From a virus (taxonomy: Duplodnaviria > Heunggongvirae > Uroviricota > Caudoviricetes), in the IMG/VR virus record IMGVR_UViG_2698536369_000018: a stretch of DNA of 5,179 nucleotides. One strand, written 5' to 3'. Within the stretch, counting starts at the first letter, position 1, and each line of letters starts with the position of its first letter. Below the pieces are notes generated by a model. It had not been told where the DNA came from, did no database searches, and saw only the letters and a program-made list of their open reading frames with translations. Both the position numbers and the translations under genes were made by a program. Below are positions 1 through 5,179 of the stretch, one piece after another.

Positions 1-281
1 GGGTTATCGCTCGCCACGGGAATATCTACGGCAGCAAGCCAGTAATGGGTTAAGTGATAACAGGTGTCTGGAAATATAGGGGCAAATCCAATCTCCTCGA
101 AATGGTCATCAATTATGTGACCACTATTCAGACAAGCTTCTTTGGCGCGCGTTAATACAGGTATAAAGTGACGATACTCAGAATAACCCAGTAGTTTCCC
201 AAGTTGTCTTGCTGACCATTGTTCTGCTCCGTTTGCATTAATCAGCTTTATCTCTTCAAAAGGTTGATGATGTTCGTTCAT
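1..281 (-). CDS. dinD: DNA damage-inducible protein D (DinD-like), 5' portion only; 93 codons in window, CDS runs off the window start
   Basis: Minus-strand ATG at 279-281 preceded by GGAG 6 nt upstream. Translation MNEHHQPFEEIKLINANGAEQWSARQLGKLLGYSEYRHFIPVLTRAKEACLNSGHIIDDHFEEI... matches the DinD N-terminus as I recall it (from memory, no search). Frame stays open to position 1. A second in-frame ATG lies 12 nt further upstream (291-293). Confidence 0.7.
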   Translation of the reverse strand, partial: MNEHHQPFEEIKLINANGAEQWSARQLGKLLGYSEYRHFIPVLTRAKEACLNSGHIIDDHFEEIGFAPIFPDTCYHLTHYWLAAVDIPVASDN

Positions 282-324
282 TGCCCACTCCATGTGATAT
301 CGATTGCAAAGAAAGTAAATCTGT

Positions 325-344
325 AACTGTATTTATATACAGTT
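325..344 (-). promoter_or_regulatory. LexA operator (SOS box) in the dinD promoter
   Basis: Plus strand reads AACTGTATTTATATACAGTT, a perfect CTGT-N8-ACAG LexA consensus. Its reverse complement AACTGTATATAAATACAGTT is the published dinD SOS box as I recall it. It sits 44-63 nt upstream of the dinD ATG and contains a TATAAAT -10-like element on the minus strand. Confidence 0.85.
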
Positions 345-578
345 GTGAGTATCTCACGTTCTCAGTGTGCTGGGCAAAAAGACATCGCAAAATCTGGAGC
401 AGGCACGCAAAACAGAATTGAATGTTGCGGGGAAGAAAAATGCCGCTCTGTTTGAGTGGGCGGCATTTGTGAAGGCTGAAAAGTAAGAATTGGCGTTACG
501 AGTTATTCTTGAATCTGTTTGTAGAGTATTGGCCTCAATGCCGCATTGTAGCTGATTTTTTTCTAATGCGTTTTTTGA

Positions 579-600
579 TTATGTACACCCTTATGTACAC
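579..600 (+). promoter_or_regulatory. Two direct copies of TTATGTACAC (12-bp period), each containing the palindrome TGTACA; candidate operator
   Basis: TTATGTACACCC / TTATGTACACGT at 579-590 and 591-602, flanked by T-runs at 556-562, 571-576 and 602-608, immediately upstream of the ORF at 631. No protein can be assigned to it from sequence. Confidence 0.25.
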
Positions 601-630
601 GTTTTTTTAAAGCGTTCAGCAATTACGCTG

Positions 631-891
631 GTGGATGATCACGGATGGCCTGATATCTACAGCCGCCTTAAAAAGCTGGACCCGACAAGCATTACTGCGT
701 ATCGGGTTCGTTCGCTCTTTCTACTCGTGGCAGATGAGTTTATTGGTGTGATTTTATCGGGCGAGGGTATTGTATCAGGCATCCCCTTTTCTATGCAGAT
801 TTGCATAGTTCCGAATGGTGGCGTTATGGAAGCCTCCCATATCAGCATCATGCCCACCAGCGTGAAGTATTTTTTTATTTCGCGGGTGTAA
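631..891 (+). CDS. Hypothetical small protein (86 aa), weakly supported
   Basis: ATG-initiated ORF from the six-frame track. No convincing Shine-Dalgarno (GGTGG directly abuts the ATG) and no recognisable motifs; codon usage is plausible. It could be a chance ORF in an intergenic region. Confidence 0.25.
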   Translation: MDDHGWPDIYSRLKKLDPTSITAYRVRSLFLLVADEFIGVILSGEGIVSGIPFSMQICIVPNGGVMEASHISIMPTSVKYFFISRV

Positions 892-932
892 AAATTTGAC
901 TAGGCGGGCGGTCCCATAAGCAATGGATTGTA

Positions 933-946
933 GGGATTTCGATCCC
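933..946. other. Short perfect hairpin GGGAT-TTCG-ATCCC
   Basis: 5-bp stem with a TTCG tetraloop, followed by a C-run. It does not fold into a canonical tRNA T-arm (5-bp stem with 7-nt loop) on either strand. Confidence 0.3.
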
Positions 947-967
947 CCCTCCTGAATGCAATTTTTC

Positions 968-979
968 GTATATATATAC
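968..979. repeat. 12-bp perfect palindrome GTATATATATAC containing (TA)5
   Basis: Read directly; it lies 8 bp upstream of the 9-mer repeat block. Confidence 0.6.
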
Positions 980-987
980 AAAACAGT

Positions 988-1013
988 GCGGGTTATGCGG
1001 GTTACCGGGTTAT
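988..1013. repeat. Three tandem direct repeats of a 9-bp motif GCGGGTTAY
   Basis: GCGGGTTAT (988-996), GCGGGTTAC (997-1005) and CGGGTTAT (1006-1013), read directly. Confidence 0.8.
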
Positions 1014-1088
1014 CTTAGCGTGCTAACTATTTTTTGTTCTTTAGTATCAATATGTTGAAAAATGCACTGTTCATTATTCAAGCATCGC

Positions 1089-1151
1089 ATAACCCGCAAA
1101 ACATCCCAAATAACCCGCAAACGCCCCAAAATAACCCGCAAACACATTGCT
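1089..1151. repeat. Three tandem 21-bp repeats, each beginning ATAACCCGCAAA (iteron-like)
   Basis: ATAACCCGCAAAACATCCCAA (1089-1109), ATAACCCGCAAACGCCCCAAA (1110-1130), ATAACCCGCAAACACATTGCT (1131-1151). The period is exactly 21 bp (two helical turns). The conserved core ATAACCCGC is the reverse complement of the GCGGGTTAT repeats at 988-1013, so the two blocks form an inverted pair across a 75-bp AT-rich spacer. Confidence 0.8.
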
Positions 1152-1751
1152 GAAAGCTGGGGTGGATAGTTCCACTGGTGCCACAGAACGGCTGAATACG
1201 GTAACTGTTGCTGGTGGTCTGTCCTGTTGTCGTTCCAGTCTCATCAAATTGAGAGGCAAGACAAAGTGCATTTTTGCACTATAGCCAAAGCCTCATAAAA
1301 CAGAGTTACCCCCACAGGTTGGCAAACCATTACCCAACGCAATTAAGTGCGTCAGAATCGATTACAGCGCGTTCCTGTGGCACATTGTTGCCGTTCTCAA
1401 CAGTGAAAGGAGAGCGTAAAAAGCGCATATCTATTACTGTTGAGGGGTGTAGCGGCATATATCGCGCATATCCACGCCGTTAATCCCGATACCGTCACTG
1501 CGCATTGAGATCCACCAGAAGATTAAGATAGTTTTACCTGAAATTATCCAAATAATTGTTTTAACTGATTAATTTTTCGAATATCTATTGTTAGGGAATA
1601 AATCATCAGATACACCATAAAACGACATCTTTCAGGGTGTAGAAGATGCAAAGCCGGTACTGAAGAAAAGACAAAGAATATGAATGGCTGGCCACACGAT
1701 GGAAGGATTGTCCATTGAAGGATCAATCCCCATGGTATAAGTATTAATAAA

Positions 1752-1796
1752 ACCGCGCAGCGGGCTTTTTTATCTGCGGTTTCCCGCCCGGGCGGC
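1752..1796. other. GC-rich hairpin cluster with T-runs on both strands; possible secondary or bidirectional terminator
   Basis: CCGCGCAG (1753-1760) pairs with CTGCGG (1774-1779) with one bulge. A small CCGC-GCA-GCGG hairpin (1753-1763) is followed by T6 on the plus strand (1766-1771), and TTTTATT follows on the minus strand. A 12-bp perfect palindrome CCGCCCGGGCGG lies at 1784-1795. Confidence 0.4.
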
Positions 1797-1809
1797 GGTG
1801 GCATTCGTT

Positions 1810-1836
1810 AAAAACAAGGCCGCGAAAGCGGCCTTG
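1810..1836 (-). terminator. Rho-independent terminator of the minus-strand operon
   Basis: On the minus strand: CAAGGCCGC-TTTC-GCGGCCTTG (9-bp perfect GC-rich stem, 4-nt loop) immediately followed by TTTTTAA. It begins 8 nt after the stop codon of the 104-aa ORF. Confidence 0.8.
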
Positions 1837-1843
1837 TGACATG

Positions 1844-2158
1844 TCACGATAGTTCCGTTTTGTTGAATTCAATTATATCAAGGTCAGAACTTTCGTAATC
1901 CTTACCGAATAAAGCAAAACATATCGCGTCAAGTTCTCTCTTATGTTTGGACGCCCGATCATAATTACCACCCCAACAGCAAATGAATCCACCAAGTACT
2001 GCTGATTCAAAAAGTAATGATGCTGCATCAATATGTCTGAACCAGGAGTCTATAAGTAAAGCAGAGAGTGATATTAATGTTCCCCACCCGCCAATCCTTC
2101 TCCATTTCTCAGCTTCATATTTAAGAGAAGCAATATATTCAATTTTATCTCTCGTCAT
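1844..2158 (-). CDS. Small putative membrane protein (104 aa), AT-rich and rare-codon-rich; last gene of the operon
   Basis: Its ATG overlaps the stop of the upstream 918-aa ORF (minus strand reads TGATG, sharing one base). Two hydrophobic segments (IGGWGTLISLSALLIDSWF and AASLLFESAVLGGFICCWGG). Codon usage is atypical for its neighbour: 4 AGA, 1 AGG and 4 ATA codons in 104. No family recognised. Confidence 0.6.
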   Translation of the reverse strand: MTRDKIEYIASLKYEAEKWRRIGGWGTLISLSALLIDSWFRHIDAASLLFESAVLGGFICCWGGNYDRASKHKRELDAICFALFGKDYESSDLDIIEFNKTELS

Positions 2159-4914
2159 CAGTTCCCCACCGCCTTTCCAAAATCCGGTGCTCTACGTGGC
2201 GCAATAGCACCCGGTTCCCACCAACTCGTTATGTCGAACTCCCGTTGCGCGCGGTCCCTTACTCGATCATTGTAACCAGGGTTTGCCATCTCCTGAAGTT
2301 GTTGCAATATCAGGTGATTGGTTATCGCTTTCGCATACCACAGGTTTGCGAATGGGGTGATCATGCGGGCTGTTTTCAGTGCATCGGCACCGAATGATGT
2401 TTCTTCACCCTGTATAGCCTTCTGTGGGTTAGTAATCAGTAATTTTGTTAACTGCTCTGCAAAGCTCAACACAGGGCCACCCATAGTGGCACCGATGCTG
2501 GAGCCATATTGCGTATGGTCCTGGAAAATAAAATCACCGTAGATACCGAACGAACCACCTTTCAGTAGAGCCTGAACCCATGTGGTTGGTTTTGTCATAT
2601 CCAGCGGGTCATTACCATTTAACAAACTGTTCATCTGGATCGCAAACATACCAGCAAGAGTTGTTCCCCCGATATATGAGGCCAGAAATTTAATGGCCGG
2701 AACGGTGTCCAAATCCCGTGTTCTGTTAACAAGTTGCCGAAATCCAGCAAATGGGGTTGTTTTGAAGAGCATGAAGCTCTTCATTAACTCGCCAGCATCA
2801 TCACGGGCATATGTATCAATACCCGTAGCGGTGGTCACAGCATTGGTCATCTCACCGTGCGTAATTCCCAGCAATTTCTGGGCTGCTTCAGCGCGTGCAT
2901 TACGAATCATGCGCATGATGGTCTGCTCAGCCTCAGCGTCGAATGCTTCTTTCATCCGTTTCTGGCGTTCTGGAGGGAGATCACCAAGGGCTGCCAGTGC
3001 CTTTTCACTCCCGGCACGAATCCGGGCAATACGGTCTGCCATAATGTCGGCGATTACGTTATCGGGCACAGCGTAAATCGCGTCTGGCGTCATCCCCATA
3101 TGCCCGGCTGTAGTCATCGGCCTGAGTTCTGCCGCTGCCATGATGGCCCAGTCCTCATTGCTCCATCCCTTGTTAGCCAGAATGGTTTTATCGGTTCCTT
3201 TTATATCGTCCAGCGTCTTAAATTTTCTGGTCAGCTCGCCAATGTTTTTGTACATCAGGAGACCAAACGACGCTTTGTTTGCGCGGTCCATAGCGATCAG
3301 CCCGGACCACTTCAGTGTCTTCTCTGCGAACCAGCCAGTTATGCCGCGAGACAAGTCAAACCCACCCATTTTCGAAACCACAGCAGCATGTGAATCCACC
3401 AGCAGACCGAGTTCAGCATTCGCCTTTTTGGCATCTCCACTAAACAGGTTTTTGATAGTGTTAACGGAAAGCCGCATTCCACCACGGGTAAAGCCCAGCG
3501 CCTGCGCATTTGCCCGCATAATGGCCTGGTCGCTGGTTGCTGTCAGTACGCTGGTGCCAAGCATGGCGCTGGTCATCAGGTTACGCAGACCACCAACTGC
3601 TGAAGAGAACACACTCGATGAAGCGACACCATTTAGGCCAGCCATTGAGTTGAACATACGGGCAACTAATTTGGCCTCATCCTCCATTTCTTTTTTGCGT
3701 TTCCCGCCTGTTACTGCGCGCTTATAGATGCGATCCAGTACCAGGGAAAAGTTTCTTTCGGCGTCCGGACCAAAGGCTTTAACGACGCCCAAATCCCTGG
3801 ATGATGATTGCAGGTGCGACATCATCACCCCCACCAGCGGCTGCTGAGTGTATCGCTCCATATAGGCGAAGTGTGACTGCGCATCCTTGAACGCCATCAC
3901 CCTGTGCTGAGAACCACGGCTCTTTATTCCTCCGGCTCCCATAAATGTACCAGGCTCAATTTTGTTTGCCCCATCAGTGGCCTTCGTTTCAAAGATCGCT
4001 TCCAGTGCCTGACGGTACTCAACGTCATTCATAATGCTGCCATCAGGATTAACGTAATTGCTGCGATCCTGCGTGTTGTAAACGTCATCAACCCATGCCT
4101 GGCGGGCAAACTCAATCGGTGGCTGGCGACCTGAAAGACGTGCTGTAGCTTGTTCTGTCACTGGTAACGATGCCAGCCATTCTTCGCGCCCGGCATTGCG
4201 AATAAGGTCAGCATCATCCACATATGGCATATTCCAGTCGTCTCGCTGGCCTATGTCAAAGCCGTTGTCGTTCATCTCATGGCGAACACGGCTTGTTACA
4301 TCCTTCCAAATCTGTGCAATTTTCTTCGCCAGTGGATTCCCGGTATCTTCGCCGTAAATCTCTTTAAGGATCTGGAGTTGTGCAGACTTTGCCGCCTGCC
4401 TGTCGAATACACTCCGAAACCGCTGCTCTCCAAGCGCCCTGCTCTGCTCGAAGAATTTGCGGACGTCATCACCTGCTTTTAGAAGTTCAGCACTGAGCTG
4501 ACGGGACCAGTCCTGATATGCCCCAATTGCAAGCTCTTCAGCAGAAGTAACGGAGATATCAGCTTTGTCTCTCGATCGTCGGCCAGCAAAAATAAACTGC
4601 TGCAAATTAACAGGTGTCTGCTGATCAGGCGGGATGTTAGCATCGAGAGTGTCAATAATTTTACTGATGGCGATCGCATTGTGGGCAACACGCTGTCTTT
4701 TCTTGTACACATCATGAACCACACGCTGGCGTACCAGTTCTGCTGCATCCATGTATGTTTGAGCATCAGGAATACCACTTTTTCCTTCTTTTGCATTCTT
4801 TCTGTGCACATGCTGCACAGCTTCTTTGATACGATCTTCAATATTTTTCAGCTCATCAGCCTTTGGCTGGCGACCAAGTGTCTGCGCAATAGCTTCAACA
4901 CATGCCTGTTTCAT
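2158..4914 (-). CDS. Large hypothetical protein (918 aa from the ATG at 4914; the track's 925-aa version starts at a GTG at 4935); function unknown
   Basis: Longest ORF in the window with codon usage typical of enterobacterial genes. The ATG at 4912-4914 is preceded by GAGGAA 6 nt upstream and overlaps the TAA of the upstream 53-aa ORF (TAATG). I see no Walker A/B, HNH, DDE or other catalytic signature by eye. It has a K/E/R-rich helical N-terminal third and a central Gly/Ala/Ser/Thr/Met-rich stretch (NSMAGLNGVASSSVFSSAVGGLRNLMTSAMLGTSVLTATSDQAIMRANAQALGF...). Confidence 0.85.
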   Translation of the reverse strand: MKQACVEAIAQTLGRQPKADELKNIEDRIKEAVQHVHRKNAKEGKSGIPDAQTYMDAAELVRQRVVHDVYKKRQRVAHNAIAISKIIDTLDANIPPDQQTPVNLQQFIFAGRRSRDKADISVTSAEELAIGAYQDWSRQLSAELLKAGDDVRKFFEQSRALGEQRFRSVFDRQAAKSAQLQILKEIYGEDTGNPLAKKIAQIWKDVTSRVRHEMNDNGFDIGQRDDWNMPYVDDADLIRNAGREEWLASLPVTEQATARLSGRQPPIEFARQAWVDDVYNTQDRSNYVNPDGSIMNDVEYRQALEAIFETKATDGANKIEPGTFMGAGGIKSRGSQHRVMAFKDAQSHFAYMERYTQQPLVGVMMSHLQSSSRDLGVVKAFGPDAERNFSLVLDRIYKRAVTGGKRKKEMEDEAKLVARMFNSMAGLNGVASSSVFSSAVGGLRNLMTSAMLGTSVLTATSDQAIMRANAQALGFTRGGMRLSVNTIKNLFSGDAKKANAELGLLVDSHAAVVSKMGGFDLSRGITGWFAEKTLKWSGLIAMDRANKASFGLLMYKNIGELTRKFKTLDDIKGTDKTILANKGWSNEDWAIMAAAELRPMTTAGHMGMTPDAIYAVPDNVIADIMADRIARIRAGSEKALAALGDLPPERQKRMKEAFDAEAEQTIMRMIRNARAEAAQKLLGITHGEMTNAVTTATGIDTYARDDAGELMKSFMLFKTTPFAGFRQLVNRTRDLDTVPAIKFLASYIGGTTLAGMFAIQMNSLLNGNDPLDMTKPTTWVQALLKGGSFGIYGDFIFQDHTQYGSSIGATMGGPVLSFAEQLTKLLITNPQKAIQGEETSFGADALKTARMITPFANLWYAKAITNHLILQQLQEMANPGYNDRVRDRAQREFDITSWWEPGAIAPRRAPDFGKAVGN

Positions 4915-5075
4915 TATGGGTTCCTCAAGAAGCACGCTGCCGCTACAGAATAAACCTTCGATTCGTTCTGGACTGTCTTAATCTGTTCATCCAACTCAGC
5001 CAGGAGATCAGAAAGTTTTGTCGGGTTTCCGGTTTCCGGGTGAGCTATAGTCAGCTCAGGATTGGCAACAGCCAT
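4914..5075 (-). CDS. Small hypothetical protein (53 aa) translationally coupled to the large ORF
   Basis: ATG at 5073-5075 with a G-rich stretch (GGGGCGG) about 8 nt upstream; translation MAVANPELTIAHPETGNPTKLSDLLAELDEQIKTVQNESKVYSVAAACFLRNP. Its TAA (4914-4916) overlaps the ATG of the 918-aa ORF. It is below the size cutoff of the supplied ORF track, so this is my own reading. Confidence 0.45.
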   Translation of the reverse strand: MAVANPELTIAHPETGNPTKLSDLLAELDEQIKTVQNESKVYSVAAACFLRNP

Positions 5076-5119
5076 GTTGAACCGCCCCGGGTTTCCTGGA
5101 GAGTGTTTTATCTGTGAAC

Positions 5120-5179
5120 TCAGGCTGCCAGATCATCGTTGCCGATGGAAGCATAATAAGCTTTTTCTGCTTCTGCCGG
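5120..5179 (-). CDS. 3' end of an upstream minus-strand gene (last 19 codons plus stop); partial
   Basis: This frame is open from the window edge and reads ...PAEAEKAYYASIGNDDLAA then TGA at 5120-5122, with typical high-usage codons. A second frame is also open from the edge and ends at 5056-5058 but uses rarer codons (CGG, AGG, CTT), so frame assignment is uncertain. Confidence 0.3.
   Translation of the reverse strand, partial: PAEAEKAYYASIGNDDLAA

Follow-up and report, generated by a model that had tools for sequence, protein, structure and literature searches.

The gene-free tract beside dinD as the probable cis-acting end of a phage satellite integrated into the last codons of yicC

Gram-negative phage-inducible chromosomal islands (PICIs) have as a hallmark an origin of replication in which two iteron sets surround an AT-rich spacer directly 3' of the primase-replicase (pri-rep) gene, and the alpha protein of P4 with its cognate origin is mentioned in the same study (PMC6092414). 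For packaging, phages and their satellites use a cohesive-end site (cos), which in lambda includes cosB, a series of repeated sites for the small terminase subunit TerS (PMC6092414), and in HK97 TerS binds a 15-bp A-tract site that starts 15 bp from the cut (PMC11331095). Here we analyse the IMG/VR virus record IMGVR_UViG_2698536369_000018 (Caudoviricetes), of which the whole stretch of 5,179 nt is called the window, and within it the tract 282–1843 upstream of dinD, which a first-pass annotation had described as lacking both the expected neighbour yicC and any convincing gene. We consider it highly probable that the gene-free DNA at about 509–1843 is the cis-acting end of a PICI-type satellite of about 20 kb integrated into the last yicC codons. 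Four lines of comparison between related loci (numbered L001 and so on) support this: the junction with its direct repeat, the joint exchange of integrase and att site, the homology of the cos region, and the match of its iterons to the module beside the gene of a DUF927 replication protein.

The gene order in Escherichia coli K-12 had been given correctly in the first-pass annotation, since the MG1655 locus contains yicC, a gap of 220 bp and dinD on one strand. Collinearity with K-12 is confined to a single BLAST block (window 91–508 to 4951–4535 of the K-12 locus L003, 97.4% identical) that breaks off 6 nt inside the 3' end of yicC, which places the breakpoint at the yicC stop codon (window about 504–518). 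Beyond it, the window from 91, 249 or 626 to 5077 is present as one block in 34 of 5,426 complete E. coli genomes (megablast); dinD alleles diverge sharply about 33 nt into the gene, and many of the matches therefore begin at 249. In L001 (NZ_OZ546940) and L024 (NZ_CP032892) the block forms the left end of an element of about 20 kb between dinD and an intact yicC, and in both the 3' end of yicC is directly repeated, over 21 bp, at the two ends of the island: the sequence TTATTCrATrTTCTGrATCTG recurs about 19.8 kb away, by an integrase gene and the intact yicC. The edge of an insertion, one of the two explanations that had been offered, is thus borne out by intact islands between dinD and yicC, including the repeat at the far end that had been proposed as a check. 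The empty site of K-12 (attB, TTATTCGATGTTCTGAATCTG) comprises the yicC stop and the six codons before it; in L001 it is replaced by attL on the dinD side (TTATTCAATGTTCTGGATCTG) and attR on the yicC side (TTATTCGATATTCTGGATCTG), the latter adjoining a gene for a tyrosine integrase. The attL core of the window, TTATTC------TTGAATCTG, has lost 6 nt relative to L001, and that of L024 has lost 3 nt. The other explanation, a lineage of different synteny, is not supported, since a query of 720 nt across the K-12 yicC–dinD junction matches 5425 of the 5426 complete E. coli genomes, in most rows with a single match that spans both genes. In an even sample of the ranked genomes, about 6 of 30 rows have a match that ends exactly at the yicC stop, so that the yicC 3' end emerges from this survey as a frequent integration site and a recurrent hot spot, used by islands other than the dinD-side island too.

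The same 4.4 kb is also found at an unrelated tRNA-Gly site, which separates the integration module from the island proper. Two ATGTACAC arm-type repeats lie in the window at 581–588 and 593–600 (0.16 expected), attR of L001 and L024 has four further copies next to the integrase gene, and the yicC-site integrase has the Arm DNA-binding domain PF13356. In the tRNA-Gly copies (L002) the integrase is 29% identical to the yicC-site integrase, TCTATACACATT repeats occupy the equivalent arm position, the core is derived from the tRNA, and homology to the window begins only at 626. Since the shared DNA starts at 626 when the integrase differs, 504–625 is assigned to attL and the DNA from 626 onward to the interior of the island, and the comparison of the two sites shows that the att/arm-site module is exchanged together with the integrase.

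The second element of the tract is a putative cos site, which was found by a sensitive blastn search of 626–1843 against phage records. In phiP27 the corresponding region, which lies between HNH and terS, includes 10 nt annotated as cos-site, and the assignment is taken from this GenBank feature. In the window a putative 10-nt cohesive-end segment, TAGGCGGGCG, at 901–910 differs at 2 positions from the phiP27 10-mer GGGGCGGGCG, and it is preceded at 878–900 by a conserved A-tract motif of 23 nt, TTTCGCGGGTGTAAAAATTTGAC; homology to an annotated cos and the flanking motif of a phiP27/HK97-type cos are therefore both present. This 23-mer occurs without mismatch in 10 loci of distantly related Proteobacteria (Escherichia, Salmonella, Scandinavium, Halomonas, Modicisalibacter, Pseudaeromonas, Rheinheimera, Caballeronia, Castellaniella and a metagenome-assembled genome (MAG) of Gilliamella), of which at least 4, judged by eye and not from annotation, have beside it a flank resembling the reverse strand of an HNH gene, as phiP27 does. 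Among the satellites, the cos block follows terL in the capsid-forming PICIs (cf-PICIs) L005 and L022, which encode a P27-family TerS and an HNH protein, and it closes the small classical PICIs L010 and L025 too. By analogy with HK97, the 23-mer is a likely candidate for the TerS site. No lambda-type cosN was found in the window, and neither the contigs of 23 IMG/VR loci nor the metagenome contigs with the site stop there as physical ends would. As a packager acting through the island cos, epsilon15 was rejected: its terminase resembles that of Sf6, and no cos motif turned up in those portions of the genome that were fetched, so that cos and cargo point to different phage types.

The surroundings of cos are rich in Chi octamers (GCTGGTGG), with 5 in 5.2 kb against 0.14 expected from shuffled sequence, at 627–634 (+), 854–861 (−), 1210–1217 (+), 3396–3403 (−) and 3831–3838 (−), three of them within about 300 nt of cos. 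The octamer at 854–861 is part of a block, CATGCCCACCAGCG, that is kept left of cos in the PICI copies and has no counterpart in phiP27 or at the other phage cos loci; Chi near cos may protect the cos ends from RecBCD. Two further observations concern this site. In the Gilliamella MAG contig CAMLMY010000005.1 (L013), the exact cos-left motif at about 3520–3542 is a spacer (TTGATTTTTCGCGGGTGTAAAAATTTGACTAGG) in an array of clustered regularly interspaced short palindromic repeats (repeat GTGTTCCCTGTATGCACAGGGATAAACCG); the match of the spacer is window 878–904, 27 identical nucleotides, among them the 4 nt with which the putative cohesive end begins. Islands like EcCICFT073 end in a diverged phiP27-type cos-like block (L023 14001–14130; L021 about 10520–10625), besides which L023 carries the lambda-type cosN 12-mer, none being found in L021, a hint that a second cos, of HK97/phiP27 type, is retained in several types of PICI. 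L021 itself (NZ_CP148328.1) is a circular 'plasmid' record of 10,790 bp that represents an EcCICFT073-like PICI with genes for an integrase, AlpA, an Icd-like protein, DUF4222, a P4-alpha-like primase with TGTTCACC iterons and a capsid-protease fusion; presumably it is an excised, replicating island assembled as a circle.

To the right of cos follows an origin-type module, termed here the A-module, which consists of a TATATATA palindrome at 958–989, three iterons TGCGGGTTA, TGCGGGTTA and CCGGGTTAT with 9-nt spacing at 987–1013, a spacer of 75 nt with 32% GC at 1014–1088, and three inverted iterons ATAACCCGCAAA with 21-nt spacing at 1089–1142. The unit TAACCCGC is present in five exact copies and one with a single mismatch, every one of them in 987–1142 and phased at 9 nt and 21 nt in inverted arrangement, so that the repeats mentioned in the first-pass annotation are real and non-random. 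In L001, L002, L022 and L006 the DUF927 gene is followed immediately, on its 3' side, by iterons of the same sequence and arrangement. In the intact island this rep-proximal module is about 10.5 kb from the cos-side module and has identical iterons; in the O157 cf-PICI L006 the two modules are neighbours at the rep gene, a long way from the end of the island. One and the same iteron is used by the distal and the rep-proximal cluster in L001, L002, L022, L010, L025 and L028, to which the IMG/VR loci L037, L041, L042 and L043 add four more cognate pairs of the TAACCCGC type. In L010 and L025 the module by cos and the rep-proximal module both use ACCTGTCCC / GGGACAAGT, in L028 both use TGAGGCAAC, and the distal cluster is thus present in three specificity classes (TAACCCGC, GGGACAAGT and TGAGGCAAC). 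The replication protein varies in parallel: the middle of DUF927 is 89–100% identical across elements, and the last ~110 residues are 81–88% identical for the same iteron and 19–42% identical for different iterons, the iterons changing together with this C-terminus over four specificity classes. L010 keeps the cos region of the window at 88% identity and has different iterons, which indicates that iteron type is tied to the replicase rather than to the terminase site, and between islands with unrelated integrases the iterons are identical. We read 987–1142 as the predicted binding sites of the island's own DUF927 protein. In the five chromosomal elements examined that have no A-type module beside rep (L001, L002, L022, L010 and L025) the distal module is cognate, which in this small sample is suggestive of a distal cognate module being needed when a proximal A-type module is missing. 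The distal module could be the firing origin, an obligatory partner like crr of P4, or a regulatory site.

Among the alternatives the one that survives best, although we consider it unlikely, is that the tract is decayed coding DNA, the pseudogene debris of a dead prophage with no cis-acting role left. It fits the degradation of this copy, which is cut by IS2 and IS629 and has the 6-nt deletion in its attL core, it fits the segments within the tract (626–870 and 1143–1672) that have no assigned role, and it fits two 'hypothetical proteins' called over the region by the annotation pipeline PGAP. These are a protein of 234 aa in L001 (20379–21083, WP_187642373.1), whose open reading frame (ORF) takes in cos and the iterons besides the att junction and matches neither Pfam nor PHROG families, and one of 162 aa in L024 (18293–18781, WP_023352369.1), which covers the attL arm and the cos region. 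Neither is kept as an ORF in the window, and both RefSeq calls are probably annotation artefacts. Within 282–1843 the longest ORFs reach 86 aa, and the small ORFs, each of which was searched (including the 86-aa ORF 631–891), gave no Pfam or PHROG match, in agreement with the earlier statement that the tract carries no convincing gene. Moreover, the order, spacing and phasing of cos and iterons are kept in classical PICIs, in cf-PICIs and in the present island despite the exchange of the iteron sequence itself, a layout that argues for selection on sites rather than on codons.

A cis-acting role of another kind, slightly less probable still, would be that the repeats at 987–1142 are sites for terminase, in the manner of cosB, or arm-type sites for the integrase instead of sites for the replication protein. 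The distance between the repeats and the putative cos cut is no more than about 80 nt, the repeated TerS sites of lambda cosB provide a precedent, and in the composite locus L026 the repeats travel with cos though they are mismatched to its own Rep. Candidate sites of either kind were rejected on several grounds: the cos block of the window is present in L010 and L025, yet their iterons are different and match those at their own DUF927 gene; no such repeats at all are found in phiP27 or at the other phage cos loci; in the O157 cf-PICI the module adjoins rep and is remote from the end of the island; the 15-bp A-tract site suffices for HK97 TerS (PMC11331095); and the repeats stay unchanged between islands with unrelated integrases, at a distance of about 480 bp from the att core. 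The notion that nothing was inserted and that the lineage simply has another conserved gene order upstream of dinD, for which only the absence of yicC from the window speaks, retains practically no probability and is already refuted by the adjacency of yicC and dinD as the norm across 5425 genomes, by the direct repeat and integrase at the breakpoint of the intact copies, and by the occurrence of the same 4.4 kb at the tRNA-Gly site.

Several points weigh against the assignment as the cis-acting end of a PICI-type satellite. The segments 626–870 and 1143–1672 lack an assigned role, and the island itself encodes neither terminase nor HNH nor capsid proteins, so that a packaging helper is assumed. 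The covariation of iterons and DUF927 C-terminus rests on about a dozen elements in four classes. The origin that was tested in the earlier work is that of EcCICFT073 and not of the DUF927 type (PMC6092414), and the related L021 and L023 have a different, P4-alpha-like primase with TGTTCACC iterons. Finally, the cos-linked distal A-module of L026 (NZ_CP041429) has non-cognate TAACCCGC iterons, whereas its Rep-proximal modules, of which A-type and B-type are both present, use GGGAC(A/G)AC (6538–6917 versus 13330–13650); the mismatch implies that the block of cos and A-module can move between islands as a unit, independent of Rep, and that a cognate distal module is not always needed. L026, which lies at tRNA-Pro and contains three genes for PerC, is a PICI region of composite structure.

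If the tract is nevertheless the cis-acting end of a satellite, as we favour, an intact copy would be mobilized in three steps. The arm-domain integrase would bind the ATGTACAC repeats and the yicC-derived core and excise the island as a circle. The DUF927 protein would then bind the iterons through its variable C-terminal ~110 residues, both at a rep-side 'B-module' and at the distal A-module (958–1142), and would open the AT-rich spacers so that replication starts. At last, HNH, TerS (P27-family) and TerL from an HK97/phiP27-like helper or from a co-resident cf-PICI would read the A-tract at 878–900 and cut at about 901–910, whereupon the island would be packaged. The remaining tract would serve as spacer, as the joint with captured epsilon15-like DNA and as the terminator of the epsilon15-like module.

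The island to which this end belongs can be read from its intact copies (L001, L002 and L024), in which the integrase is followed by a helix-turn-helix (HTH) regulator, Rha/GIY-YIG/BRO-N, an Icd-like protein, DUF4222, the 708-aa primase-type DUF927 protein, SSB, ProQ/FinO and PerC, and then by three large genes and a 104-aa gene. The backbone recurs in the small classical PICIs at tRNA-Pro (L010, L025), in the O157 cf-PICI between phoQ and roxA (L006) and in the cf-PICIs L005 and L022. As expected for a Gram-negative PICI, a defined att site with a specific integrase is found in L001 and L024, the window holding attL only; a pri-rep gene followed by a two-iteron-set origin is found 3' of the DUF927 gene in islands of the L001, L002 and L024 type; and the annotation of these three shows a unidirectional backbone without a full morphogenesis and lysis set, capsid, tail, terminase and lysis genes being absent from it. 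The capsid, protease, portal, connector and hnh-terS-terL genes of cf-PICIs, present in L005, L006 and L022, are likewise absent from L001, L002 and L024. A P4-like element is not indicated either, given the DUF927-type primase, the TAACCCGC instead of TGTTCACC iterons and the lack of annotated sid, psu and delta. The genome of an epsilon15-like podovirus (Uetakevirus) comprises an Sf6-like terminase, portal, capsid, tail tube, tailspike and lysis genes. Of such a prophage the island has only the gp15–gp17 block with its 3' flank.

The three large genes, intact in L001 (21758–29419), encode homologues of epsilon15 gp15, gp16 and gp17, which are the only virion-related genes of the island. The epsilon15 record labels gp15–17 as head, virion structural or hypothetical proteins and the neighbours gp13 and gp14 as 'internal virion protein'. 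The 918-aa protein of the window shares 88.8% amino-acid identity with gp17, at a ratio of nonsynonymous to synonymous changes (pN/pS) of 0.10; the 104-aa ORF has no match in Pfam or PHROGs. Together with the latter, the gp15–17 homologues occupy the slot of the capsid and terminase genes of cf-PICIs. The searchable literature yielded no account of ejection-protein cargo in a PICI, of an island between yicC and dinD or of a distal origin module beside cos, a silence that is weak evidence. The island is, in our view, a known kind of element, a Gram-negative PICI, with an undescribed cargo and unusual details. Tentatively, and with clearly less confidence, it may represent an undescribed subclass of PICI, in which the cf-PICI slot for capsid and terminase has been swapped for intact podovirus gp15–gp17 genes under purifying selection, combined with a siphovirus-type (phiP27/HK97) cos and a split origin, reminiscent of P4 ori/crr, in which the module by cos is the island's sole A-type module. 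If this holds true, the 'empty' 1.3 kb would be one indispensable half of the replicon, in physical linkage with the site of packaging, and the island would engage two unrelated helper types, or its ejection proteins would serve interference.

The copy in the window is damaged at both ends (Table 1). Positions 1–90 are 93% identical to an annotated insertion sequence (IS), IS2, in L006, homology to intact dinD loci starting at 91, and the IS629 copies matched by 5077–5179 lie in phages encoding Stx and in plasmids, so that a block of 5 kb is bracketed by two different IS elements; the junctions of the window with the IS2 and IS629-type ends occur in none of the genomes of the E. coli collection. 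With the 6-nt loss in the attL core and these two cuts, the copy is probably immobile.

Table 1. Features of the 5,179-nt window, with the observation on which each assignment is based.
Feature	Position	Strand	Basis or remark
Terminal 90 nt of IS2-type (IS3-family) element, cuts off dinD	1–90		Matches thousands of IS2/IS3-family copies
5' 191 nt of dinD	91–281	−	Start codon 279–281; collinear with dinD of K-12 and L001
Normal dinD–yicC intergenic DNA (dinD promoter region)	282–508	−	Part of 97.4% K-12 match over 91–508
attL core remnant (last codons and stop of yicC)	504–518		Junction comparison with K-12 and L001
Integrase-specific attL arm	519–625		Two ATGTACAC arm-type repeats
Island-internal leader upstream of cos, no gene detected	626–870		Pieces common to other PICIs
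cos site, phiP27/HK97 (HNH-dependent) type	871–952		84.5% identity over 82 nt to phiP27 cos region
Origin-type A-module	958–1142		Palindrome, two iteron sets, AT-rich spacer
Spacer without convincing ORF or RNA	1143–1505		Blocks 1312–1382 and 1455–1505 common to other PICIs
AT-rich tract with recombination joint	1506–1672		32% GC
3' flank of epsilon15-like module	1673–1843	−	Ends in minus-strand operon intrinsic terminator
104-aa ORF at epsilon15 gp18 position	1844–2158	−	WP_000196352.1 in L001, L002, L024
epsilon15 gp17 virion (internal/ejection) protein homologue, 918 aa, intact	2158–4914	−	phrog_684, E 1e-295
epsilon15 gp16-like gene, 3' end only	4914–5076	−	Collinear with 686-aa gene of L001 up to 5077
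Terminal ~100 nt of IS629/IS1203-type (IS3-family) element, cuts off gp16-like gene	5077–5179		96–99% identical to IS629 copies

The rest of the tract was examined for further signals. Upstream of dinD a LexA-box-like CTGT-N8-ACAG can be read directly from the sequence at 325–344, and a hairpin at 438–468 on the minus strand with a U-run at 433–437 (−12.4 kcal/mol, z −4.4) is the orphaned terminator of yicC. Of the hairpins that had been remarked upon, this one and the operon terminator of the epsilon15-like module (stem 1814–1837 on the minus strand, U-run 1809–1813, −19 kcal/mol, z −4.1), a strong one, proved real, and 1750–1766, considered as a plus-strand terminator, was discarded because its fold is unstable (z +0.6). 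The leader is common to islands with other integrases (L002 from 626, L025 627–692, L010 from 762 and L005 from 836). Within it, the 71 nt at 669–739 are 84.5% identical to DNA of phages P1/P7 and P1-like plasmids that covers the rlfB 3' terminus and the sequence just beyond it, and they fold into a hairpin (z −2.3). The very AT-rich stretch that had been placed at about 1500–1740 is real at about 1500–1672 (28–32% GC) and narrower than described, 1650–1740 having about 40% GC. Similarity to PICIs extends as far as 1505, and matches to an epsilon15-like prophage (L030) set in at 1673, so that 1506–1672 holds the joint between backbone and phage DNA; from there to 1843 the window is 88–96% identical to L030 and 94–97% identical to phages TL-2011b, phiv142-3 and ZX5. 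A permissive Rfam search of the whole window returned nothing at E≤1 except two matches at chance level, a scan of RNA-fold z scores in sliding windows over 520–1920 on both strands (64 windows) gave nothing below about −3, and a promoter and terminator scan found no more sites than in shuffled sequence.

For annotation, these results explain a gene-less tract, flag 'hypothetical proteins' that were called over att, cos and origin iterons, and identify the yicC 3' end as an often-used integration site. For satellite biology, they provide a sequence-level account of a cis-acting end that is common to classical PICIs, cf-PICIs and the present island and consists of att arm, Chi-containing block, phiP27-type cos and origin module. 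Furthermore, they add comparative evidence suggesting that DUF927 replicases read their iterons via a swappable C-terminal domain, and they point to an island with podovirus ejection-protein genes as cargo. They extend a known family and do not overturn the current understanding of it.

Compared with P4, the island has in common a primase-helicase whose C-terminal domain reads short iterons, here according to sequence comparison, a helper-type cos, and two separated iteron clusters on a small replicon, as in the ori/crr arrangement of P4. It differs in that the primase is of the DUF927 type instead of alpha, the iterons are not TGTTCACC, which is the iteron used by the EcCICFT073-like islands L021 and L023, sid, psu and delta are missing, and the cos is of another type. 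The cos corresponds to that of HK97/phiP27-like phages in having the A-tract motif by a G+C-rich segment of about 10 nt, followed by GGGATTT...CCCCCTCC. In these phages cos lies between the HNH and terS genes, whereas that of the island adjoins no terminase or HNH gene, and in the PICI copies, unlike the phage sites, the motif is flanked on the left by the conserved Chi block CATGCCCACCAGCG and on the right by the origin module.

With the Gram-negative PICIs (Fillol-Salom et al., 2018; PMC6092414) the island shares a site-specific integrase with its own att site, a unidirectional set of HTH/AlpA-type regulator, Icd-like protein, DUF4222, primase-replicase, SSB, ProQ/FinO and PerC, an origin with two iteron sets around an AT-rich spacer, and a cos for helper-dependent packaging. 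Unlike them, it measures about 20 kb instead of about 8–12 kb, carries as cargo three large homologues of epsilon15 gp15/16/17, and has one of its origin-type modules about 10 kb from the rep gene, beside cos; and while the site tested for EcCICFT073 is a lambda-type cosN (PMC6092414), that of the island is of the phiP27/HK97 type. Among the cf-PICIs, L022 (NZ_CP121356, 13114–28305) lies within terL of an HK97-like prophage, and so, separately, does a truncated PICI (L027, NZ_CP122620, 14001–21441), an arrangement that corresponds to the helper-embedded PICIs described earlier (PMC10111431). In contrast to cf-PICIs such as EcCIEDL933 (bioRxiv 10.1101/2022.09.08.507074), genes for capsid, protease, portal and connector are missing from the island, as are hnh, terS and terL, and it thus cannot make its own capsids or terminase, the epsilon15-like genes standing in this slot. 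It nonetheless resembles them in its backbone, in a DUF927 gene of 88–92% nucleotide identity, in identical TAACCCGC iterons and in the block of cos and A-module with which L005 and L022 close as well.

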